7,111 nucleotides of DNA. Source: a virus. Position numbers and translations under genes: made by a program. How positions within the stretch are numbered: the stretch's first letter is position 1; each line of letters starts with the position of its first letter. Of this stretch, positions 1 to 7,111 are shown one piece after another. The notes under the pieces were generated by a model, which was given only the letters and a program-made list of their open reading frames with translations, made no database searches and was not told where the DNA came from. The DNA is taken from the IMG/VR virus record IMGVR_UViG_3300012630_000124, positions 1 to 7,111 of that record; one strand, given 5' to 3'.

Positions 1-55
1 CGCTGACCAAGGGAAGACAAAGCGCGTAAAAAATTAGGCTTAGCCATCCGCACAG
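1..55. repeat. Terminal redundancy: 1-55 is identical to 7057-7111, the overlap of a circular contig. The unique genome is 7,056 bp.
   Basis: Base-by-base comparison of the two ends gives 55/55 identity. The repeat lies inside an ORF that reads through the junction in frame. Confidence 0.95.
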
Positions 56-269
56 GTTGATAACGTGGAGAACCGCCAGATAAAGGGGTCGCAATTGCAG
101 GGACCGAAGCCCAGCCACGTTGCATCATTTGCTGTGAGTATGGAAGTGGGGCGTGCATACCTTTCGAATTAAATTTAACAGGTATTACAGCAACAACTTT
201 TGCGGGTTGACCAGCGAAAACAGAACAAGAAAAAATTACAAATAAAAATAAAAATAAAAATAAGCGCAT
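1..269 (-). CDS. gIII: N-terminal segment of the pIII-like adsorption/minor coat protein (signal peptide plus about 70 aa). It continues across the circular junction into 5682..7056, giving about 547 aa in total.
   Basis: Hand translation from ATG at 269-267 gives MRLFLFLFLFVIFSCSVFAGQPAKVVAVIPVKFNSKGMHAPLPYSQQMMQRGWASVPAIATPLSGGSPRYQPV. There are no stops, and it is in frame (216 nt = 72 codons) with the GTG at 53-51, which equals 7109-7107. SD AAGGAG lies 8 nt upstream. The N-terminus looks like a signal peptide with a VFA/G cleavage motif. Confidence 0.8.
   Translation of the reverse strand, partial: MRLFLFLFLFVIFSCSVFAGQPAKVVAVIPVKFNSKGMHAPLPYSQQMMQRGWASVPAIATPLSGGSPRYQPVRMAKPNFLRALSSLGQ
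240..263 (-). repeat. Four perfect tandem copies of the hexamer AAATAA (minus strand TTATTT), encoding (Leu-Phe)x4 in the pIII signal peptide
   Basis: Read directly: aaataa x4 at 240-245, 246-251, 252-257 and 258-263. The repeat is in frame with the CDS that starts at 269. Confidence 0.9.
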
Positions 270-270
270 T

Positions 271-340
271 GAAAAAACTCCTTGTAGCGTCCTGTGGTCA
301 GCCTGCGCGCTCTCGGCATGACCACAGGCCGCCACAAGGA
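271..340 (-). terminator. Strong rho-independent terminator between the major coat gene and gIII
   Basis: On the minus-strand RNA the arms 340-319 and 300-279 form a 22-position stem (20 Watson-Crick pairs, 1 G-U, 1 mismatch) around an 18-nt loop. G then UUUUUU (277-272) follows. The position matches the central terminator after gVIII in Ff phages. Confidence 0.85.
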
Positions 341-346
341 TTTTAA

Positions 347-574
347 TTAACCGCCGTTAGCGCCTTTAGAGATAAAACGACCCAATAAAGACATACCAAC
401 AGATGCACCAAGAACAACAGCCATAACGCCGAAACCAGCAGTTACAGCGGTACCAGCATCAGCGATAACGCCATCTTTAACAGATGTTACAACAGCAGCA
501 TCTAAAGCAGCATGAGCAGTTGAAGCAACGAAAGATAAGCCAACTAAGGCAGCAGATAGAATTTTTGCTTTCAT
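347..574 (-). CDS. gVIII: Major coat protein precursor (pVIII-like), 75 aa. Signal peptide MKAKILSAALVGLSFVASTAHA; mature protein about 53 aa.
   Basis: ATG at 574-572 with GGAG 8 nt upstream. There is an AHA/A signal-peptidase motif. The mature protein has an acidic N-terminus, a hydrophobic core GFGVMAVVLGASVGMSLL and a basic C-terminus GRFISK, resembling M13 AMVVVIVGATIGIKLFKKFTSKAS. Its position is before the terminator and gIII. Confidence 0.9.
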   Translation of the reverse strand: MKAKILSAALVGLSFVASTAHAALDAAVVTSVKDGVIADAGTAVTAGFGVMAVVLGASVGMSLLGRFISKGANGG

Positions 575-596
575 GTGAAAGACTCCATTTTCAAAG

Positions 597-719
597 TTAA
601 GGTCGGGATGACCGTTCGATAATCTGTTTGAACATGCGCAGGGTAATACCCGCACCAAATCCAACCAGCCAAAGAGACAATAAAAGACCGATAATTTTTG
701 CAGCGTCATTTATGTCCAT
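597..719 (-). CDS. gIX: pIX-like minor coat protein, 40 aa: MDINDAAKIIGLLLSLWLVGFGAGITLRMFKQIIERSSRP
   Basis: Hand translated; not in the ORF track. ATG at 719-717 with GAGG upstream, and it starts 3 nt after the gVII stop. It has a single hydrophobic helix. The ...GITLRMF...ERSS tail resembles M13 pIX ...SGITYFTRLMETSS (from memory). Confidence 0.7.
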   Translation of the reverse strand: MDINDAAKIIGLLLSLWLVGFGAGITLRMFKQIIERSSRP

Positions 720-722
720 TTT

Positions 723-818
723 TTACCTCTGGTAACCAGAGTTAAAACCGTCTACAAGTGCGAAACAGGCAGCACAAGCGAAAATAAGTAAATAAAGGTC
801 AGAAATTGTGGCTTCCAT
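723..818 (-). CDS. gVII: pVII-like minor coat protein, 31 aa: MEATISDLYLLIFACAACFALVDGFNSGYQR
   Basis: Hand translated; not in the ORF track. ATG at 818-816 with SD AGGTGA upstream. It resembles M13 pVII MEQV...VVLCFALGIIAGGQR (ME start, CFAL core, G-x-QR end; from memory). Its position is between the ssDNA-binding gene and gIX. Confidence 0.7.
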   Translation of the reverse strand: MEATISDLYLLIFACAACFALVDGFNSGYQR

Positions 819-829
819 TTATCACCTAT

Positions 830-879
830 AAAAAAGCACAACGGGTAAAAGGCTTTTGGAGAAGTACTAAAACCCGTTG
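830..879 (-). terminator. Possible attenuator or weak intrinsic terminator between the ssDNA-binding gene and gVII
   Basis: The minus-strand RNA forms an 8-bp stem CAACGGGU/ACCCGUUG (879-872 with 846-839) around a 25-nt loop, followed by UGC and UUUUUU (835-830). The large loop weakens the call. Confidence 0.3.
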
Positions 880-889
880 CTAAAAAATG

Positions 890-1228
890 TTAAGCCTTAA
901 AAAGCTTAGTAATGTCATTACCGAGGTAATAAGTAACACCAGATGACTTAGCGCCTTGCCAAACTCGACCCCAAACGGGCAAAGTCAAAAGCTGACCTTC
1001 AAACTTTGCTAAATGGGCTGCTATACCTTGTTTAATCAGAGAATCAGAAATTACACATTCAAGTACTTCTGTTTTGGTTTCACCGTATTGGCCTACAGTG
1101 GCGACCTCTAAACCAGCAAACAAAGTTTGGCGGGTTTGGCCGTTTTGGTCTGGTTTGCCAAGAGCTATACGAGTGCCTAAATAAGTACCGGTAAGCGTCA
1201 AACCTTGGAATAAATTTAAATCTGACAT
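890..1228 (-). CDS. Putative ssDNA-binding protein (pV analogue), 112 aa
   Basis: It occupies the gV slot directly downstream of gII and upstream of gVII. SD AAGGAA lies 7 nt before the ATG. The size fits inovirus ssDNA-binding proteins. I recognised no sequence similarity to M13 pV, so the call is positional. Confidence 0.6.
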   Translation of the reverse strand: MSDLNLFQGLTLTGTYLGTRIALGKPDQNGQTRQTLFAGLEVATVGQYGETKTEVLECVISDSLIKQGIAAHLAKFEGQLLTLPVWGRVWQGAKSSGVTYYLGNDITKLFKA

Positions 1229-1238
1229 GTTGGTTTCC

Positions 1239-1622
1239 TTATGAAACTAAGCGCAGTTTTAAAAGCGCTGGGTTGAGGTTGTATTGCTGAGAAAGCGGTA
1301 AAGGTTCGACAAAATCAGCAGGGACTTGCTTCGAGAAATCGACGTTAATCATCTTGATAAACGGAACGACGTTTGACTGGTCGCCAGTCAAATTCATTAG
1401 TTGAGCCAGTGATAAACCAGCGTCGGTAAAATCATGCGTATAGCGGGACCAAGTGTTGCGAGGGTAGTTCGCTTTGGTACGTTCGTAGCCGTCGGTCATG
1501 ATGTTTCTATAAACACCATAGAGGCGGTTTGCTTTTGGATAACTAATTTTGCCGGAATCCGAAACACGGAAAAATTTAGCTTTAAGAGAATTTAAAACAG
1601 ATTCTTTGTCATACGTGTTCAT
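1239..1622 (-). CDS. gX: Candidate nested gene X: in-frame internal start giving the C-terminal 127 aa of pII
   Basis: Met296 (ATG at 1622-1620) sits in FEGATM-NTYD, which matches the Met that starts pX in M13 (FEGDSM-NIYD). An SD-like GAAGGTG lies 5-6 nt upstream. Confidence 0.5.
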   Translation of the reverse strand: MNTYDKESVLNSLKAKFFRVSDSGKISYPKANRLYGVYRNIMTDGYERTKANYPRNTWSRYTHDFTDAGLSLAQLMNLTGDQSNVVPFIKMINVDFSKQVPADFVEPLPLSQQYNLNPALLKLRLVS

Positions 1623-2507
1623 TGTTGCACCTTCAAAAGACTTGAAAACGTCTTTAAATGCTAAACCCCATAGGGTCGGAATTATTTGCGGATTGTCTAT
1701 CTGTAATTGTGGATCTGTGATTAAGCCAAGCGTTGCAGGCAAGCCGCGTTGAGAGAACCAATCTCGATAAATACGAGCCTCAAAACGAACGGCACCAGTG
1801 GCAAATAGCCTAACTTCTGGTCTAGTAATTTCTGCCAATTGGCGTCGGAAATGCTCATACTTGGTTTGAGCATATTTGCGGGTAAGCTTGTTAATTTGCG
1901 AATCGAGTTCAACGAGTTTTAAGTAAACTTTCTTAACGCAAACTTCAGATCCTTTATTGAAATACAAAGTGGTTTTGTATTCTTCATCGTACCAAGGGCG
2001 GGTTTGACCTATCTTGATGTTACGCATCAAATCTAAGCATTGTTGCGCTTGCTGTTGGTTCGGAACATGGGCGGTATAGGTCACATCTAAGTAATCAACT
2101 ACACCATGCTCCCAGTCTAAAAATTCTGTGAGATTGTGATCCCCAAAACAGAACGCCTCGACTACGGCCATGATGCAGAGGTTGAGATTGTCTGAACCGT
2201 AAACGTTGTGACCCTGTAAAAGCTTTGCAGGATTACCAACAATTTTAATGTAAGGAATACGCTTGAAATCTGTGCCGTTGATTATCTTAAAAGCTAAAGA
2301 AGCAAACGAAGAAGGCAGAGATTCGAACTTGTGGAATAACTGCGTAAAAGTAAACTTTTGGTTTTCAGTGTCCCAAGATACACAGCCGGATAAATCAAGT
2401 CCAAAGCGCTCCATTAATGTCCGGTCATCAATAAAGCAAGCACCAGAAGCACTTTCAACATAGTGCTTGCGTAAAAATGGGATGCTGATGGAAACCATAT
2501 CAATCAT
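1239..2507 (-). CDS. gII: Rolling-circle replication initiator (nickase), homologue of Ff gene II protein, 422 aa
   Basis: Motifs match M13 gpII as recalled: MIDM N-terminus; FESLPSSFASLAFKI (M13 FESLPTHYSGIAFKI); NPAKLLQGHNVYG (SPAKVLQGHNVFG); VRFEARI; FEGATMNTYD (FEGDSMNIYD); DSGKISYPKANRLYGVYR (PSGKTSFAKASRYFGFYR); PRNTWSRY; QLMNL...NVVPFIKMINVDFS. ATGA overlap with the upstream 77-aa ORF. Confidence 0.93.
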   Translation of the reverse strand: MIDMVSISIPFLRKHYVESASGACFIDDRTLMERFGLDLSGCVSWDTENQKFTFTQLFHKFESLPSSFASLAFKIINGTDFKRIPYIKIVGNPAKLLQGHNVYGSDNLNLCIMAVVEAFCFGDHNLTEFLDWEHGVVDYLDVTYTAHVPNQQQAQQCLDLMRNIKIGQTRPWYDEEYKTTLYFNKGSEVCVKKVYLKLVELDSQINKLTRKYAQTKYEHFRRQLAEITRPEVRLFATGAVRFEARIYRDWFSQRGLPATLGLITDPQLQIDNPQIIPTLWGLAFKDVFKSFEGATMNTYDKESVLNSLKAKFFRVSDSGKISYPKANRLYGVYRNIMTDGYERTKANYPRNTWSRYTHDFTDAGLSLAQLMNLTGDQSNVVPFIKMINVDFSKQVPADFVEPLPLSQQYNLNPALLKLRLVS

Positions 2508-2737
2508 AGTTTGCTACCATTGTCACCAGTGACGGCAGTTCTTAAAGATACTGCGCGACCAGTTCGAGAGCTTCGAAGATTACCTAAAACTAAATCGCGA
2601 TTTTCGCAACAAAGGGAAGCAGCAAGTTGAAAATCGGCTAAAACAGAAGTAGGGATCCAAAGCGTTATTTTTTCCAAACCTTGAGAACGTTTTGAAATTT
2701 CGTAACGTTGGTTGCGTGATAACTGAGAATTGCTCAT
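2504..2737 (-). CDS. Hypothetical small protein, 77 aa; possibly a small DNA-binding regulator
   Basis: GAGG lies 7 nt upstream of the ATG. ATGA overlaps at both ends (with the 139-aa ORF and with gII) indicate translational coupling. The segment RNQRYEISKRSQGLEKITLWIPTSVLADF fits the R-x-x-R...GL-x-x-h-x-h-W-h-P pattern I recall from small RepB/CopB-like and DUF3018 (MazE-like) regulators. That assignment is unverified. Confidence 0.6.
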   Translation of the reverse strand: MSNSQLSRNQRYEISKRSQGLEKITLWIPTSVLADFQLAASLCCENRDLVLGNLRSSRTGRAVSLRTAVTGDNGSKL

Positions 2738-3153
2738 GAACGAACCTCAGTAAATTCAACCAAGTTGCACAGCCAATCGCCAACAGCTGGAGAGAAAACC
2801 GAAGGATTAGCGCAGCCTTTGCTAACATCTAAATCATCCTTGCCACATACTGGGCAAGGAAGCTGACAACGCTCAGCGGAGCGGCTAACTTCGTTTGCCC
2901 GAGCGCTGTCAACTAAATCAACAACGATAAAAGAAAGGCCGTTTGATTGAAGTTGGTTTTCTATCGTTGATTTAAACTTGGATTGAGCAACTTGAATTTT
3001 TGCCGGAACAATTTTCTTGGCGTTAGCACCCAGAATTTCAAAGTTCGCGTATAGTGTCCATTGCTCGAAAATTGCGCGTACAGGTTCACGAGTTAACGTG
3101 AGTAAAATGCCAGCATTGGCAGCCTGTAAGGCTTTGATTGTGTTCATATCCAT
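2734..3153 (-). CDS. Hypothetical protein, 139 aa, with a Cys-rich C-terminal part (CQLPCPVCG...C...C); first gene downstream of the operator region
   Basis: Strong SD AGGAG lies 9 nt upstream of the ATG at 3153. ATGA overlap with the next ORF. No family recognised. Confidence 0.65.
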   Translation of the reverse strand: MDMNTIKALQAANAGILLTLTREPVRAIFEQWTLYANFEILGANAKKIVPAKIQVAQSKFKSTIENQLQSNGLSFIVVDLVDSARANEVSRSAERCQLPCPVCGKDDLDVSKGCANPSVFSPAVGDWLCNLVEFTEVRS

Positions 3154-3192
3154 GAGAAGCCGCTCCTGATATACTTTTTATAAAAACAAAGT

Positions 3193-3210
3193 GTATCCAA
3201 AATTGGATAC
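3193..3210. promoter_or_regulatory. Operator-like perfect 18-bp palindrome GTATCCAAAATTGGATAC
   Basis: Read directly. It lies in the 104-bp divergent intergenic region and shares the GTATCCA/TGGATAC half-sites with the second palindrome. Confidence 0.7.
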
Positions 3211-3220
3211 GGAATGAAAT

Positions 3221-3238
3221 GTATCCATAGTTGGATAC
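3221..3238. promoter_or_regulatory. Operator-like 18-bp palindrome GTATCCATAGTTGGATAC (7-bp arms)
   Basis: Read directly. Its centre is 28 bp from the first palindrome, and it lies 20 bp upstream of the repressor-like gene ATG. Confidence 0.7.
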
Positions 3239-3257
3239 AAAGTCAAGGGCGTTACGT

Positions 3258-3620
3258 ATGAATTTCAGCAACAAGCTAATTGACCAATACAAAGAATTTA
3301 TAAAAGCGAAATCAGATGCAGCAGCAGCAGCTGAGCTGCCACACATGACCAGAATGAATGTGAGCGCAATCAGAAAAGGTGAAAGAAGACTTACAGAAGA
3401 ACAAGCAGTATTTATTGCTGAAGCTTGCGCGCTCGACGTCGCACTAGTGCTTGTCGAACTAGCAGCTGAATCAGCCAAAAGCGAAAAAGCACAATCAGCA
3501 TGGAACGCATTAGCAAAAAAGCTTAAAGCCGCTTCAAGCTTATTGCTTTTGGCGGCTTTTCTTAGTATTTCAGGCACTTCAGGCTTAAATCAAAGCCAAC
3601 GCATCAAATATAGCCCATAA
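3258..3620 (+). CDS. HTH (Cro/CI/XRE-like) transcriptional repressor candidate, 120 aa, with a hydrophobic C-terminal segment
   Basis: It is the only plus-strand gene and is divergent from the replication/structural operon, like rstR in CTXphi or Pf4r. ATG at 3258 with AAGGG 8 nt upstream. The HTH-like stretch is SDAAAAAELPHMTRMNVSAIRKGERRLTEEQAVFIAEACALD. Confidence 0.75.
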   Translation: MNFSNKLIDQYKEFIKAKSDAAAAAELPHMTRMNVSAIRKGERRLTEEQAVFIAEACALDVALVLVELAAESAKSEKAQSAWNALAKKLKAASSLLLLAAFLSISGTSGLNQSQRIKYSP

Positions 3621-3639
3621 TGTGATTATTACGTTAAAT
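3610..3639. other. dif-like candidate XerC/XerD recombination site (possible attP)
   Basis: ATAGCCCATAA-TGTGATTA-TTACGTTAAAT. The right arm matches the conserved XerD arm TTATGTTAAAT at 10/11. The left arm ends in the conserved (G)C-CATAA of XerC arms. The spacer is 8 nt (dif has 6, cer has 8). No integrase gene is present. Confidence 0.4.
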
Positions 3640-3708
3640 AACAATAACTTAGTGAAAGCTTATTGGCTAAATATAGAGCAACAGCAAAAAAACAGCAACC
3701 CTTGAAAG

Positions 3709-3750
3709 TGTTCCAAAATGGAACAAGGTCCGGCTATTACTGTGCCGGAC
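3709..3750 (-). other. Plus-strand (viral-strand) origin of rolling-circle replication, f1-like core
   Basis: The minus strand reads AGTCCGGCacagtaataGCCGGACcttGTTCCATTTTGGAACA. The f1 ori core is AGTCCACgttctttaataGTGGACtcttGTTCCAAACTGGAACA. Both have a hairpin with a TAATA loop followed by the CTTGTTCCA...TGGAACA palindrome. An AT-rich stretch follows, like f1 domain B. Confidence 0.75.
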
Positions 3751-3793
3751 TACGGCAAGTAACTCAAAAACACGTGCGAAATAGATAAGTTAT

Positions 3794-3815
3794 AAAAAAA
3801 GCCCTTTCGGGCTTT
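3794..3815. terminator. Bidirectional intrinsic terminator hairpin AAAAAAAGCCCTTTCGGGCTTT
   Basis: The GCCC/GGGC stem (extendable to AAAGCCC/GGGCTTT) is flanked by A7 on one side and TTT on the other. On the minus strand it reads hairpin plus TTTTTTT, which would end the gI-ORF69 transcript. On the plus strand it is the first hairpin with trailing Ts after the repressor-like gene. Confidence 0.6.
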
Positions 3816-3828
3816 AGTTTGGCAGAGG

Positions 3829-3844
3829 GAAGCCCAAGGGCTTC
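3829..3844 (-). other. GC-rich stem-loop GAAGCCC-AA-GGGCTTC (candidate packaging signal or minus-strand origin element)
   Basis: Palindrome read directly, in the non-coding region downstream of the last morphogenesis-operon gene. Confidence 0.35.
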
Positions 3845-3869
3845 AAAAGAGTTACGCTCCGCTCCCATC

Positions 3870-3887
3870 AAGGGGCTAACGCCCCTT
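3870..3887 (-). other. GC-rich stem-loop AAGGGGC-TAAC-GCCCCTT (candidate packaging signal or minus-strand origin element)
   Basis: 7-bp stem with a 4-nt loop, read directly, 16 nt downstream of the ORF69 stop. Confidence 0.35.
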
Positions 3888-3902
3888 AATAATCCCCAGA
3901 AG

Positions 3903-4112
3903 TTAGCTAGAGAAATAGCGAATAATCGAAGTAATGATAAATAGTGAAATTAATACAAAATTGAAAAGGCTCAAGCGAAAAGGTTTGGGGTTTGTTTGAT
4001 GGGGTTTGTCATCGGTAGAGAGTTCACGCGGATCTTTATCTAATGTTTGATAGGTTTTAGGTTTAGTTTTTTGATGATGGTCTTTATACCAATCTCTATC
4101 AATCATACTCAT
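3903..4112 (-). CDS. Hypothetical tail-anchored small membrane protein, 69 aa, in the slot occupied by gIV in Ff
   Basis: SD AAGGGA lies 7 nt upstream of the ATG at 4112. The N-terminal 45 aa are charged and Pro/Lys/Asp/Thr-rich, and the C-terminus has the TM-like segment LSLFNFVLISLFIITSII. A hand count gives roughly one-third GC, visibly lower than neighbouring genes. Confidence 0.5.
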   Translation of the reverse strand: MSMIDRDWYKDHHQKTKPKTYQTLDKDPRELSTDDKPHQTNPKPFRLSLFNFVLISLFIITSIIRYFSS

Positions 4113-4123
4113 AAAATAGTCCC

Positions 4124-5359
4124 TTATGTTTTATCTTGTGGGAGAGGCGCAACGGCCGCGATCGATTGCGAAGATTCAGAATGTACGTAATGAGGGCGAC
4201 ATTTTACAAGCTTACTTTCATTTTTAAAAGTTATCGTTGCAGCACATGGGGCAAGATAAGTAACTTTGTAACCCAAATCAGTAGGATAAAAAGACCCATC
4301 ATCAGATTCAAAACAAAAATCCGCATGTGATTTACCAGTTGAGACAGTGCAAGTTATAACAACACTTTCTAAGGTTGACTCAAAATCAGATAGATTTGTT
4401 TGCTGATTTGATTGTTGCTCATCAACTTCATTTACTGGTGCTGGGGCCTGTGATGTCGGATTGGCAGTTGTTAGTTGCTGAGGTTCTTCAGCTTGGGAGA
4501 AATAGTACCAAGCAAAAAAGCAAAGGACAGCAGCGGGAAGTTGCCATCCAAATTTTAAAAGAGGATTTACTTTTTTTGGTACTGGTTGTTTTGCTGGCTC
4601 TATTTTCTGAGGTTCTTTTTTATCGAAGTAGTTAGCGGGCAAAACGGTAAACGATGCCCGCATGTCTATTTGCTTACCGTACTTATTAATAAATGTGTCT
4701 AAGATGAATTGCTGGCTAGTCTTATAGGCCGGATGCAATTCATAACATTTAAAAAACTCAGTCTTAGATAAATGATGACGATCCTTCTTTTTCCCGTTGT
4801 AAACATTAAGAACGTGAAAGCCATAAGGAGCAGTAATCTTAATAATTGGATTAATAAATAGATTCAAAATCTTTCCGAGAATCGGAGAGCTAAAAAGATT
4901 TTTACCGCTTCGACAATGCCAAATTTCCTGCAGAAGTGTTTCGCGCAATTGTTTGTCGACTGCATCAACATCTTGAGATAAAAGCCAAACCCGCCACCCA
5001 AGCTTACGAGATTGCACGAACCAAGATACAACGGCCAAGCGATCTTTATCATTCCATGAGCGAGAGTTAAACGAAGTTAAAAGTTCATCAATGACAATAA
5101 GACCAAAACGGCTTTCGTCGTAAGTGTCTGGGTTGTCTGGGTCTAATTCCGGATAAGCTTTTCCAAGCAATTCCAAATCAATAGAACGAGGAATATCAGG
5201 CAAACGAGTAATATAAGATTTCGCGTTAGGTGCTAAAACATCCGGCTTAATGTCCAAATTAGTAGCAACACGCAAACCCAATTGCAGATAAGTTTTAATT
5301 TCTCTAACCGCGATTTTTGACTTGCCGGAGCCGCGAACACCTTCAACGAAAATTGCCAT
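4124..5359 (-). CDS. gI: Assembly ATPase pI / Zot-family protein, 411 aa
   Basis: Walker A GVRGSGKS. VATNLDI; YDESRFGLIVIDE; NSRSWNDKDRLAVVSWFVQSRKLGWRVWLLSQDVDAVDKQ versus M13 pI NTRSWNDKERQPIIDWFLHARKLGWDIIFLVQDLSIVDKQ (from memory). TM segment WQLPAAVLCFFAWYYF. The C-terminus GYKVTYLAPC...KLVKC resembles M13 GYSLTYIDLC...EIVKC. TAATG overlap with gVI. Confidence 0.93.
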   Translation of the reverse strand: MAIFVEGVRGSGKSKIAVREIKTYLQLGLRVATNLDIKPDVLAPNAKSYITRLPDIPRSIDLELLGKAYPELDPDNPDTYDESRFGLIVIDELLTSFNSRSWNDKDRLAVVSWFVQSRKLGWRVWLLSQDVDAVDKQLRETLLQEIWHCRSGKNLFSSPILGKILNLFINPIIKITAPYGFHVLNVYNGKKKDRHHLSKTEFFKCYELHPAYKTSQQFILDTFINKYGKQIDMRASFTVLPANYFDKKEPQKIEPAKQPVPKKVNPLLKFGWQLPAAVLCFFAWYYFSQAEEPQQLTTANPTSQAPAPVNEVDEQQSNQQTNLSDFESTLESVVITCTVSTGKSHADFCFESDDGSFYPTDLGYKVTYLAPCAATITFKNESKLVKCRPHYVHSESSQSIAAVAPLPQDKT

Positions 5360-5682
5360 TATTTAGTGGTTACCTTAATTTTCAGCGCACGCTGATGGAA
5401 AGTAAAAAGCGCTGAAAGCGCATAGGCCGATGAAATAGCAGATATACAGACAGAAGCATTTGGCGGAACTAAAGAAAGACCCGCAGCTAAAAAACCGTTA
5501 CTAGGTGCGCTGGTTGCCAAAGATGAAAAAAGCTCTGTAAAACCAGTGGCTAAAGCAGTAACAGCAGCTACATAAACACCAATATAAATAACTGCTAAGC
5601 CTAGCCGCTGAGCGGCAAAGGCTACAAAGATACGAAAAAATGAAGTTAGACCAGTGACAATAAACGTAAGAAAAGCAGCCAT
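5359..5682 (-). CDS. gVI: pVI-like minor coat/termination protein, 107 aa, multi-pass hydrophobic
   Basis: It lies between gIII and gI with TAATG overlaps at both ends. It is strongly hydrophobic. LSLVPPNASVCISAISSAYALSALFTF resembles M13 pVI LILPSNALPCFYVILSVKAAIFIF (from memory). Confidence 0.8.
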   Translation of the reverse strand: MAAFLTFIVTGLTSFFRIFVAFAAQRLGLAVIYIGVYVAAVTALATGFTELFSSLATSAPSNGFLAAGLSLVPPNASVCISAISSAYALSALFTFHQRALKIKVTTK

Positions 5683-7111
5683 TATGGGGTTACCTCAAGT
5701 GTGCGATGGAAGATACGGAAACAAAGTAACAGCGTGTAAATTGATAAAAGCCAACTCACAACAGGTTGACCCCAATCATTATAAGGGGGGCAATGTTGGT
5801 CAACAGTGATGGTTTTTGGCTCACCTCGAATAGATACAGAGAGATTAAAACCGCGACAGCCACCACTAGTTGGTAAGGTTACAAAATCCAAAAGCTTTGG
5901 TTGACCGTTAAAATTAGGTAACGGTGATTCGATGAAATCAGTAAGTTTTTGGTGCTCTTGGGTGAGCTTATCAACTTCAGTTTGTACACTCTGACCTTGC
6001 ACGGCCTGATTTCCCCAGCTGTTATTTGAAGCCTCATATTGAGATTTGGTTAGACCGGGGAATTTAGACCAATCAATAGGAGTTTCTTCTTTTGGTGGTG
6101 CGTCAGGTGTAATAGTTTGATTAGTGTATAAATCAACAAAGGTACTGCCTTCGTGCCAGTTGTTAATCTGGACTAATAAATTAGGCATCATTTCTGCTGG
6201 TACATAATTAGGGGCGTTTGGGTTGGTATGCTGCACAGTACCAGTAGCAATAGCTTCAGCAGCATCAGCAAAAGAGGGGCTAACAGGGTCAAAAGTCGGA
6301 TTATCAAATAAATCCGGATAAGGTGCGCCAGTCTCCCAATCAACAAAATCATCTAGACCAATATCAGCATCAATCAAAGGATTAGGGTTTTTTGCATATT
6401 GTTCATTTAGCCAAGTCTCATCAATCGCAGAAACTCGTATGTTATTAGTTGGCCGGAAGCACGAATGAGCATTATTAATGAATAAAGGGCCATTGGTGTA
6501 ATCTGGATTTGCATCCGGTGGACAAATAAAACCTTCTTGATTTTGACCAAGCCCAACAGAACCAGCGACAAACTGAGTGCCAACAGAAGGCGCGGAAGTA
6601 TTACAAACAGGCTGACCAGATGAATTAGCAAAACAAGTAGTTTGGACAGCAGTAGAGACAATTTTATAACCGATAGTGGCACTAGATAAATTAATAGTAT
6701 TAATGGACTCAAACGAGCGATTAATAGTGAGCGTGATATTGGGTGCCATTTCAATATTTTCAGAAGCTTTAGGCAATTGAATTTGTGAAGATACGGATTC
6801 AGAGGCTTTAGAAACACAATCAGCGAACGTAGTACCAGTGAAAGCGCCTAAGTGAGTATCAGAAGGATAATAAGCATTACAAGTAACGAAAGTTTGCGGT
6901 TTAGCGGGGACATGATCAGTAAAATCTATTTCACCTGGTTGCGATGCATCTTCAGTATCAAAGCACAGAGAAGTAAACAATTGAGAAGTACAATTTGCCT
7001 CATAAGCACCATAAGCAATCAAAGCAGCTTTACCAGCTGGAGTCATATTAGCGGCACGCTGACCAAGGGAAGACAAAGCGCGTAAAAAATTAGGCTTAGC
7101 CATCCGCACAG
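5682..7111 (-). CDS. gIII: Main body of the pIII-like adsorption/minor coat protein. The ORF-track start at 7109 is an artefact of linearisation.
   Basis: This is the largest ORF and sits immediately after the major coat gene and terminator, as gIII does in Ff. It has several Cys pairs. The C-terminal hydrophobic anchor VVSWLLSIYTLLLCFRIF is preceded by C...C, like the pIII C-domain. Its stop overlaps the gVI start (TAATG at 5684-5680). Confidence 0.85.
   Translation of the reverse strand, partial: VRMAKPNFLRALSSLGQRAANMTPAGKAALIAYGAYEANCTSQLFTSLCFDTEDASQPGEIDFTDHVPAKPQTFVTCNAYYPSDTHLGAFTGTTFADCVSKASESVSSQIQLPKASENIEMAPNITLTINRSFESINTINLSSATIGYKIVSTAVQTTCFANSSGQPVCNTSAPSVGTQFVAGSVGLGQNQEGFICPPDANPDYTNGPLFINNAHSCFRPTNNIRVSAIDETWLNEQYAKNPNPLIDADIGLDDFVDWETGAPYPDLFDNPTFDPVSPSFADAAEAIATGTVQHTNPNAPNYVPAEMMPNLLVQINNWHEGSTFVDLYTNQTITPDAPPKEETPIDWSKFPGLTKSQYEASNNSWGNQAVQGQSVQTEVDKLTQEHQKLTDFIESPLPNFNGQPKLLDFVTLPTSGGCRGFNLSVSIRGEPKTITVDQHCPPYNDWGQPVVSWLLSIYTLLLCFRIFHRTLEVTP
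7057..7111. repeat. Second copy of the 55-nt terminal redundancy (duplicate of 1-55)
   Basis: Identical to 1-55. 55 is a common de Bruijn assembler k-mer length. Confidence 0.95.

Follow-up and report, generated by a model that had tools for sequence, protein, structure and literature searches.

The IMG/VR record IMGVR_UViG_3300012630_000124, analysed here over its full length of 7,111 nucleotides (nt; 'the window' below), holds, with a probability that we put at about 85%, the whole genome of a temperate Inoviridae-type phage of Rheinheimera-like Alteromonadaceae that would integrate by XerC/XerD in the mode of phage VGJφ. Judged by its proteins and origin, this genome shares a replication and assembly core with the Ff phages (M13, f1 and fd; genus Inovirus), and the homology is real but distant. 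It adds to the filamentous phages a complete and well-delimited temperate genome in which attP, attL, attR, the origin and the predicted operators are placed to the base.

The window is a closed circular genome

The first and last 55 nt of the window (1–55 and 7057–7111) are exactly identical, leaving a unit of 7,056 nt; the probability of a chance origin of this identity is negligible. The same circle was present in a second assembly. Logan contig ERR3489838_1252 (L004; run ERR3489838) has a length of 7,086 nt and a 30-nt terminal overlap, and rotation by 930 nt turned it into the 7,056-nt circle with 0 mismatches, its break point differing from that of the window. Because the 55- and 30-nt overlaps lie at distinct break points, we infer that they are the k or k−1 signatures of two de Bruijn assemblers on a closed path and not biological direct repeats. 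Furthermore, the open reading frame (ORF) of a 547-amino-acid (aa) pIII-like protein spans the junction uninterrupted (minus strand, 269..1 followed by 7056..5682, with a single stop at its end), and the related prophage L002, described below, is colinear over it, with 33 nt unaligned per side between two BLAST segments and no net indel. A closed path of 7,056 nt also fits the genome size of filamentous phages (small circles of about 5–12 kb). The initial annotation had described the window as a closed circle and not a chromosomal fragment, and the overlap, the second assembly, the continuous ORF and the colinear prophage bear this out. The scenario that it had named as a refutation, in which the 55-nt repeats flank an integrated element, is excluded: prophage ends of relatives map to 3610–3639 instead of the window ends. 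Since these ends lie about 3.5 kb away from the 55-nt repeat, we dropped the repeat as an attachment (att) site.

A dif-like attachment site

Related prophages came from a scan of one genome per species for related pII and from a separate scan of metagenomes (related loci are cited by number throughout). The genome scan gave three prophages with related pII, namely L001 in an Alteromonadaceae metagenome-assembled genome (MAG; JAYSCP010000004, 316-kb contig), L002 in a Gammaproteobacteria MAG (JAFLDV010000024) and L003 in Rheinheimera tilapiae; the metagenome scan gave L018, a 22-kb contig. Integrated relatives are thus present in Alteromonadaceae/Rheinheimera-type genomes and point to both host and lifestyle; the initial annotation had missed them, as it had the dif-like attP. 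The relatives whose ends map to window positions 3610–3639 are L001, L002 and L018.

When both strands of the window were scanned, 3610–3639 was the sole strong dif-like site. Read from its XerD arm to its XerC arm, this attP is ATTTAACGTAA-TAATCACA-TTATGGGCTAT; 10 of the 11 positions in its XerD-type arm agree with the E. coli/host arm, and the XerC arm matches that of the relatives at all 11. No comparable site (≤1 mismatch) occurred in 300 shuffles. The site lies about 70–100 nt downstream of the origin, and both its layout and its placement are conserved in relatives. The arrangement of arm, 8-nt spacer and arm is common to L001, L002, L016, L017 and L018, with a variant in L011/L019, and attP is intact in L017 and L011/L019, independent contigs in which the site is flanked by phage sequence on either side.

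Hybrid sites, one of them regenerating dif, flank the prophages L018, L001 and L013/L014. In L018, attL reads ATTTAACATAA-TATACA-TTATGGGCTAT, with the host XerD arm and a 6-bp spacer, and is followed by phage sequence identical to that of the window; attR reads ATTTAACGTAA-TAATCACA-TTATGGGCTAT, with the phage XerD arm and the 8-bp spacer, and is followed by host sequence. The reconstructed host dif is ATAACCCATAA-TGTATA-TTATGTTAAAT. Its spacer TGTATA and the attP spacer TGTGATTA share only TGT, the three spacer bases adjoining the XerC arm. The XerC arms of host and phage differ in L001 (..GGGTTAT and ..GGGCTAC, respectively), where the phage arm is found in attL and the host arm in attR, and the spacers are unmixed, each being wholly host or wholly phage. 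Taken together, these arm polymorphisms and spacers confine the crossover to the stretch from the spacer to position 8 of the XerC arm, where XerC cleaves.

A second, weaker dif-like site, ATTTATCATTA-CTTCGA-TTATTCGCTAT, lies on the minus strand at 3915–3942, within the 3′ end of orf69. It has 2 + 2 mismatches and a 6-bp spacer, stands in direct orientation to attP and starts about 300 bp upstream of the attP start, with about 275 bp between the two sites; equally good sites were seen in about 1.3% of shuffles. This site is identical in L002, but L001, L018 and L010 do not have it. Chance could explain it, or it could be the scar of an Xer-mediated acquisition of cargo.

Repressor and predicted operators

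The gene adjoining attP encodes a repressor-like helix-turn-helix (HTH) regulator (Table 1). It is the only plus-strand gene of the window, and a gene caller likewise gave 120 aa. Its stop codon TAA (3618–3620) forms the last 3 nt of the attP XerC arm, and because the stop ends the phage arm, the gene should stay intact in the free and in the integrated state, adjoining the regenerated dif in the latter. A PDB sequence search with the repressor returned nothing significant. Between the regulator and orf139 lie two perfect 18-bp palindromes, GTATCCAnnnnTGGATAC (2 found, 0.01 expected by chance), and a promoter scan found an early promoter-like TTGACT-17-TACATT (3246–3218) that overlaps the second of them. 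Of the relatives, only L001, with a regulator of 88% identity, has these palindromes too; they are absent from those with regulators of 31–64% identity. Such a distribution is the pattern expected of immunity-specific repressor/operator pairs, and the palindromes are therefore predicted to be the operators. The repressor/operator module and the extra early genes pointed out in the initial annotation were thus recovered as the HTH regulator, the two palindromes, orf139 and orf77.

An Ff-type replication and assembly core

pII is 35–37% identical to pII of M13 and IKe over its whole length. The pX segment within it is 42–46% identical to that of Ff/IKe and has the same internal start, MNTYDKE aligning with MNIYDDS of M13 and MNVYDDS of IKe. 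pI, including its C-terminal periplasmic part, is homologous as well, with 27% identity to M13 pI over 397 aligned columns (query 4–387) and 34% to IKe pI over 233. Similarly, the gene order II(X)-V-VII-IX-VIII-III-VI-I(XI) is shared with Ff and with IKe (genus Lineavirus). The plus-strand origin (3750–3709) reads GTCCGGC-ACAGTAATA-GCCGGAC-CTTGTTCCATTTTGGAACA, where M13 has GTCCAC-GTTCTTTAATA-GTGGAC-TCTTGTTCCAAACTGGAACA, and it also aligns with the annotated viral-strand origin of IKe (6554–6599); common to them are the nick hairpin with its AATAG loop and the adjoining TTGTTCCA...TGGAACA repeat. By analogy, the pII nick is predicted at T^AATAG, between window positions 3739 and 3738. The origin motif is present in L001, L002, L003, L005, L016, L017 and L018. 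Homology of pII/pX, pI and the plus-strand origin to Ff/IKe, as initially proposed, was thus upheld, at identities of 27–46% and with a shared origin architecture.

For the small proteins, similarity to M13 had been proposed too. In a 20-sequence database, pVI matched M13 pVI only weakly (E = 0.005); pVII and pIX gave no significant match to M13 there (E about 1 and 0.06, respectively) and none in Pfam, and for these two the claim is not supported. Permissive Pfam and PHROG scans likewise left pVII and pIX without a supported family. pIX has a weak PHROG match (E = 0.017), and pVIII matched M13 pVIII weakly in a small database (E = 4.5e-5). Neither pV nor pIII showed BLAST similarity to its Ff/IKe counterpart, and we regard pV, pIII, pVII and pIX as positional analogues only of the Ff proteins. 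None of 50,697 phage records was matched when the whole genome was searched by megablast and blastn, and tblastn searches of phages with the repressor and with pV found no match either. With pII, tblastn against plasmids returned distant matches only (≤38%), and no deposited replicative form was found among them. The phage is consequently not the 'close Ff relative' that it had been taken for, given 27–37% aa identity in its main proteins, no nucleotide match in the 50,697 phage records and no pIV. Unlike Ff and IKe, it has no gene IV secretin, its pV comes from another family and its pIII is unrelated in sequence, and it carries two extra early genes, orf69, a dif-like attP and a divergent repressor with its operators. 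The window phage would be temperate, with Alteromonadaceae as hosts, in contrast to the strictly episomal Ff and IKe and their Enterobacteriaceae hosts.

Hosts and exchange of modules

The relatives in JAYSCP010000004, JAFLDV010000024 and metagenome contig Ga0187843_10000728 belong to one lineage with the window phage and have pII proteins 90–98% identical to its own, an identical origin, and the same attP layout and chromosomal locus. To the right of the prophages, the host DNA of L018, L001 and L002 is syntenic (74–75% nt identity), and the left flank of L001 is 77% identical to R. tilapiae. This synteny indicates integration at the same chromosomal locus in related hosts.

Modules are shuffled between these relatives and the window phage. 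In the comparison with L001, identity is high for replication and regulation (pII 98%, orf139 91%, regulator 88%) and lower for virion and assembly proteins (pVIII 50%, pIII 38%, pVI 54%, pI 60%). The corresponding values for L002 are 90% for pII, 86% for orf139 and 64% over 69% of the length for its divergent regulator, versus 94% for pV, 94% for pVII, 98% for pIX, 100% for pVIII, 100% for pVI, 88% for pI and 96% for orf69; L002 is without orf77. In L001/L010, orf69 is 38–40% identical. Replication and regulation are therefore nearest to L001, and virion and assembly genes nearest to L002, in agreement with the mosaic architecture noted initially and documenting exchange between the replication/immunity and virion blocks. 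The pIII proteins of the window phage and L002 (3275–4918) are 42–66% identical at residues 100–300 and 80–100% in the C-terminal 250 aa, which suggests that the receptor-binding domain has diversified within an otherwise near-identical virion module.

Proposed life cycle and alternative readings

In the life cycle that we propose, pII would open the T^AATAG site of the origin hairpin by a plus-strand nick and drive rolling-circle replication, pX and the OB-fold pV would shift replication to the accumulation of single-stranded DNA (ssDNA), and pI/pXI would build virions at the inner membrane, to be exported through a host secretin as in CTXφ. The double-stranded replicative form would pair attP with host dif on XerC/XerD. 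XerC would then swap one strand pair at the border of arm and spacer, the difference between the spacers (host, 6 bp; phage, 8 bp) would block the XerD step, and the Holliday junction would be resolved by replication, which is the VGJφ mode. Integration would regenerate a working dif beside the repressor gene, which its position on the phage arm would leave intact. By acting on the two operators, the repressor would shut the early operon (orf139-orf77-II...) and set immunity specificity. Because the origin would occupy the extreme right of the prophage, some 70 nt ahead of attP, virion production would need Xer-mediated excision or a tandem array.

Several points weigh against this reading. 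An integrated copy of the exact phage was not found, the nearest prophages having 82–94% DNA identity in the shared modules. We infer Xer dependence, the XerC-first order and reversibility from junction sequences and precedent; the assignment to Rheinheimera-like Alteromonadaceae, which are water bacteria, draws on MAG labels and flank synteny; and the use of a host secretin is pure conjecture. Three genes (orf139, orf77 and orf69) stayed without an assigned function after homology and structure searches. Furthermore, part of the same pII lineage, the R. tilapiae branch (L003/L005/L006/L021), has an att geometry that the model does not explain. There, the canonical dif-like site adjoining the repressor is reversed (XerC arm, TGTATA, XerD arm, then phage; L003 9136–9163 and 17776–17803, L005 9135–9162, also L006 and L021), no attP-like site follows the origin, and L003 has a non-canonical partner site, GATTTCTATAA-CTTCCA-TTATGTTAAAT. 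This geometry misfits an XerC-first model and may reflect another Xer mode or a composite element array.

The contig could also be a collapsed assembly of at least two tandem prophage copies at dif, the apparent attP being the junction between copies; this counts against our reading as well, and we consider it unlikely but worth serious weight. Tandem arrays are frequent in XerCD-dependent filamentous prophages (PMC4246890, PMC12715192), and relatives of the window phage are integrated in genomes. The sequence by itself fits free circles (replicative form or virions) and a tandem prophage array equally well, because XerD arm, phage spacer and phage XerC arm would follow one another where two tandem copies meet, just as they do in attP. 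However, both assemblies close cleanly and neither runs into host sequence at attP, and an array would alter the physical state only, the 7,056-nt unit being a complete phage genome either way. A more speculative idea, to which we give somewhat little credence, is that the lineage combines an Ff-type replication core with a lysogeny module of the integrative mobile elements exploiting Xer (IMEX), unusual for the cer-like 8-bp spacing of its attP and for an XerC arm that encodes the end of the repressor gene, and that the mode of Xer integration has naturally switched within this lineage, between XerC-first on one side and XerD-side or composite IMEX on the other. It draws on the sister members L003/L005/L006/L021, with their same origin, reversed dif-like site and non-canonical partner, and if true, this lineage would be a tractable bridge from the Ff model system to temperate IMEX phages.

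Other integration modes are improbable for this site. The CTXφ mode (an ssDNA attP(+) hairpin of two inverted dif-like sites) and the TLCφ mode (XerD-first, with a degenerate XerD arm) are established routes of filamentous IMEXs (PMC4246890), and the structured intergenic ssDNA and the weaker dif-like site at 3915–3942 would suit them. Yet no inverted second site lies near attP, the sole inverted candidate (reverse complement, 5719), with 6 mismatches and a 12-nt spacer, is at chance level, and the weaker site is direct, about 275 bp off and not conserved in L001/L018. Unlike in TLCφ, the XerD arm is near-perfect (10/11) and the central region differs from dif in both length and sequence; the crossover, moreover, maps to the XerC side. 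Both were dropped on the anatomy of the site. A further reading, the nearest to the initial annotation, is a strictly episomal, Ff-like chronic phage in which the repressor only tunes expression and the dif-like site is incidental. This would agree with the Ff-type pII/pX, origin and gene order and with the lack of an integrase, but it is very hard to reconcile with arms that match at 10/11 (XerD) and 11/11 (XerC), a quality reached by none of the 300 shuffles, or with the conservation of the site in relatives whose prophages end there with hybrid sites. Equally implausible is a defective or satellite element that needs a helper phage: the missing secretin gene and the three ORFs without assigned function could be read this way, but the replication, coat and assembly genes are all present and intact, with conserved coupling overlaps, and autonomous inoviruses such as CTXφ and VGJφ commonly have no secretin gene (PMC4246890).

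Comparison with known Xer systems

The preferred reading, XerC-dependent integration at attP, has its closest precedent in VGJφ, which uses a single 29-bp double-stranded attP and XerC-only exchange (PMC4246890, PMC5357621). With VGJφ (Fibrovirus) and VGJ-type IMEXs, the window phage shares the lack of an integrase and a single double-stranded attP with both Xer arms. It further shares with them a spacer that exceeds the dif spacer in length and has homology to it at the XerC end alone, integration at host dif with a functional dif regenerated at one junction, and a genome of about 7 kb without a secretin (PMC4246890, PMC5357621). Its attP measures 30 bp with an 8-bp spacer, unlike that of VGJφ (29 bp, 7-bp spacer). 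No Vibrio phage was among the 56 phage records matching pII at E ≤ 1e-5, and the only protein similarity to Vibrio phages found in the VGJφ comparison was that of the Zot-family pI to VFJ/Vaf1 (28–29%). An 11 + 8 + 11 layout is also that of ColE1 cer, an Xer site of 30 bp whose central region measures 8 bp and at which XerC acts alone and the Holliday junction is resolved by other means (PMC5357621). Unlike attP, cer resolves plasmid multimers, needs ArgR/PepA accessory sequences and has no role in integration, and its sequence is unrelated to the window attP beyond the Xer arm consensus. Vibrio inoviruses have dif-like att sites with 6–12-nt spacers and a repressor as the terminal prophage gene (PMC12715192). 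The tie between attP and a regulator gene is also seen in XacF1 of Xanthomonas, there inside the putative regulator ORF12 (PMC5666396), and in CTX-II Vibrio prophages, with rstR and zot as terminal genes (PMC12715192). Unlike in these, the regulator of the window phage is unsplit; its last three sense codons and stop form the XerC arm, and this arm stays with the phage.

The design is thus a standard one for XerCD-exploiting filamentous phages, with a control module, attP by the repressor, no integrase and no secretin (PMC4246890, PMC12715192, PMC5666396). What had been called an unusual combination is, with its repressor, absent secretin and dif-like attP, the standard layout of XerCD-dependent phages (PMC4246890, PMC12715192). 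No new mechanism is involved either, as CTXφ/VGJφ-type phages are already established to integrate at dif, to carry a repressor beside attP and to rely on a host secretin. Three features are specific to the window phage, namely its host group, the 8-bp spacer and the combination of such a lysogeny module with a II/X initiator and an origin of the Ff type. The Ff-type pII/origin module, best known from episomal coliphages, hence also serves XerCD-dependent temperate phages. A literature search found no described filamentous phage of Rheinheimera-like Alteromonadaceae, and the window phage probably represents a new genus within an established phage type.

Gene content and map

The minus strand, whose richness in T is what one expects of an inovirus coding strand, encodes all genes but the regulator, in the order orf139-orf77-II(X)-V-VII-IX-VIII-III-VI-I(XI)-orf69-intergenic region (Table 1). 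Four gene junctions overlap as ATGA or TAATG, and assigned genes fill about 6.4 of the 7.06 kb. The ORF and family scans thus confirmed the Ff core genes in Ff order without gIV. No ORF matched a secretin family (Pfam, PHROGs), and no unassigned ORF is large enough for one. Likewise, no integrase or recombinase family was matched in Pfam and PHROG scans of the window proteins or in an NCBIfam scan of six of them. An Rfam scan of the window found nothing, and an NCBIfam scan of the small ORFs nothing useful.

Table 1. Features of the window, by position
Feature	Position	Strand	Basis
Terminal duplicate	1..55	none	same as 7057–7111; inside the pIII-like gene
pIII-like protein, 5′ part (adsorption/minor coat)	1..269	-	start at 269; MRLFLFLFLFVIFSCSVFAG signal peptide; AAGGAG Shine–Dalgarno upstream; gene goes on at 7056
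pVIII, major coat precursor, 75 aa	347..574	-	phrog_1646 'major coat protein', E 1.4e-4; gene caller also 75 aa
pIX-position protein, 40 aa	597..719	-	position, size, hydrophobicity; kept in L002 (98%) and L001 (42%)
pVII-position protein, 31 aa	723..818	-	position, size, hydrophobicity; ORF kept in L002 (94%) and L010 (41%)
pV-position ssDNA-binding protein, 112 aa	890..1228	-	Pfam Putative_G5P, E 7.4e-9
pII, rolling-circle initiator, 422 aa	1239..2507	-	Pfam Phage_CRI, E 1.3e-43, and G2P_X_C, E 3.1e-14
pX, 127 aa, in frame in pII	starts at Met296 (window 1622)	-	GAAGGTG Shine–Dalgarno upstream
orf77, second early gene	2504..2737	-	phrog_11804, E 1.5e-20
orf139, first early gene	2734..3153	-	conserved C-terminal four-Cys motif CxxCGK...D...GCxNPS...VGDWxCN
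Divergent control region	3193..3246	-	two 18-bp palindromes (3193–3210, 3221–3238) and early promoter-like site
Repressor-like HTH regulator, 120 aa	3258..3620	+	phrog_638 'transcriptional regulator', E 3.5e-24; phrog_4441 'HTH DNA binding protein', E 6.6e-16; Pfam DUF3693, E 2e-5
dif-like attP, 30 bp	3610..3639	+	XerC-type arm ATAGCCCATAA, 8-bp spacer TGTGATTA, XerD-type arm TTACGTTAAAT
Ff-type plus-strand origin	3709..3750	-	hairpin GTCCGGC-ACAGTAATA-GCCGGAC, then repeat TTGTTCCAttttGGAACA
GC-rich intergenic hairpins	3798..3890	-	inverted repeats 3867–3890, 3829–3844 and 3798–3815, then T-run
orf69, small membrane protein	3903..4112	-	phrog_13107, E 2e-5; one hydrophobic segment; cargo position between pI and intergenic region
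pI/Zot morphogenesis ATPase, 411 aa	4124..5359	-	Pfam Zot, E 4.8e-16; phrog_1675 'protein I of M13', E 1.5e-53
pVI-like minor coat protein, 107 aa	5359..5682	-	Pfam DUF5455, E 1e-6; phrog_1944, E 7.7e-11; start overlaps pIII stop (TAATG)
pIII-like protein, 3′ part	5682..7056	-	C-terminal membrane anchor VVSWLLSIYTLLLCFRIF

The coat genes are those of a filamentous phage, with a pVIII that combines a signal peptide and one hydrophobic helix, small hydrophobic ORFs upstream of it and a family match for pVI. The signal peptide of pVIII ends in AHA and is followed by an acidic N-terminus, a hydrophobic core and a basic C-terminus. The pIII-like protein has a hydrophobic N-terminal leader and a C-terminal anchor, and no Pfam or PHROG match was found for it, permissive scans included. 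A hexanucleotide repeat, (AAAAAT)x5.3 on the plus strand (232–263), encodes the (Leu-Phe)4 run of its signal peptide; the length of this in-frame repeat could vary by slippage. The gap between pVIII and pIII (270–346, minus strand) contains a 10-bp stem, CCTGTGGTCA...TGACCACAGG, with an 18-nt GC-rich loop, which adjoins the pIII ribosome-binding site upstream. This stem sits where Ff has its post-gene-VIII terminator; a terminator scan made no call for it, the loop being too long and no T-run following. pI has a pXI-like internal start at Met233 (window 4663).

For the pV-position protein, the AlphaFold model (pLDDT 85) had SSB-type OB folds as all of its top 50 PDB fold matches, the best at E = 4.5e-4 and six at E ≤ 0.001, with TM scores of 0.31–0.45. 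On this model, the protein is an OB fold from another family and not an orthologue of Ff gVp. The intergenic ssDNA is strongly structured (fold z = −3.6) and has a terminator-like site at 3815–3798; by analogy, its hairpins would comprise the operon terminator and a candidate packaging signal or minus-strand origin.

Early genes and cargo

orf139 has 13 homologues, all of them unannotated. The C-terminal motif is invariant across the 13, and the N-terminal domain is replaced in three. Its AlphaFold model has a pLDDT of 65, with only moderate confidence for the N-terminal 87 residues, and gave no fold match at E ≤ 0.001 in the PDB or a viral fold library; nor was a known family matched. An unannotated ORF in Vibrio phage KSF-1φ shares 49% identity with orf77, which further occurs in Shewanella phage Dolos, in filamentous prophage elements of Vibrio cyclitrophicus and in Vibrio phages of about 32 kb. 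In the related loci it has no clear counterpart, the one weak match (25% identity) being in L014/L015. This distribution marks orf77 as a small mobile gene that other marine filamentous phages have in common with the window phage and that crosses unrelated phage types.

Relatives hold cargo between pI and the origin, the position of orf69 in the window. In L016 (6528–10203), this cargo consists of BrnT/BrnA and Phd/YoeB toxin–antitoxin pairs and of DUF2806 and NERD proteins, and in L005 (15321–19018) of an AAA_15 ATPase and two ORFs without a family. The interval between pI and the origin thus looks like a hot spot for defence or addiction cargo.

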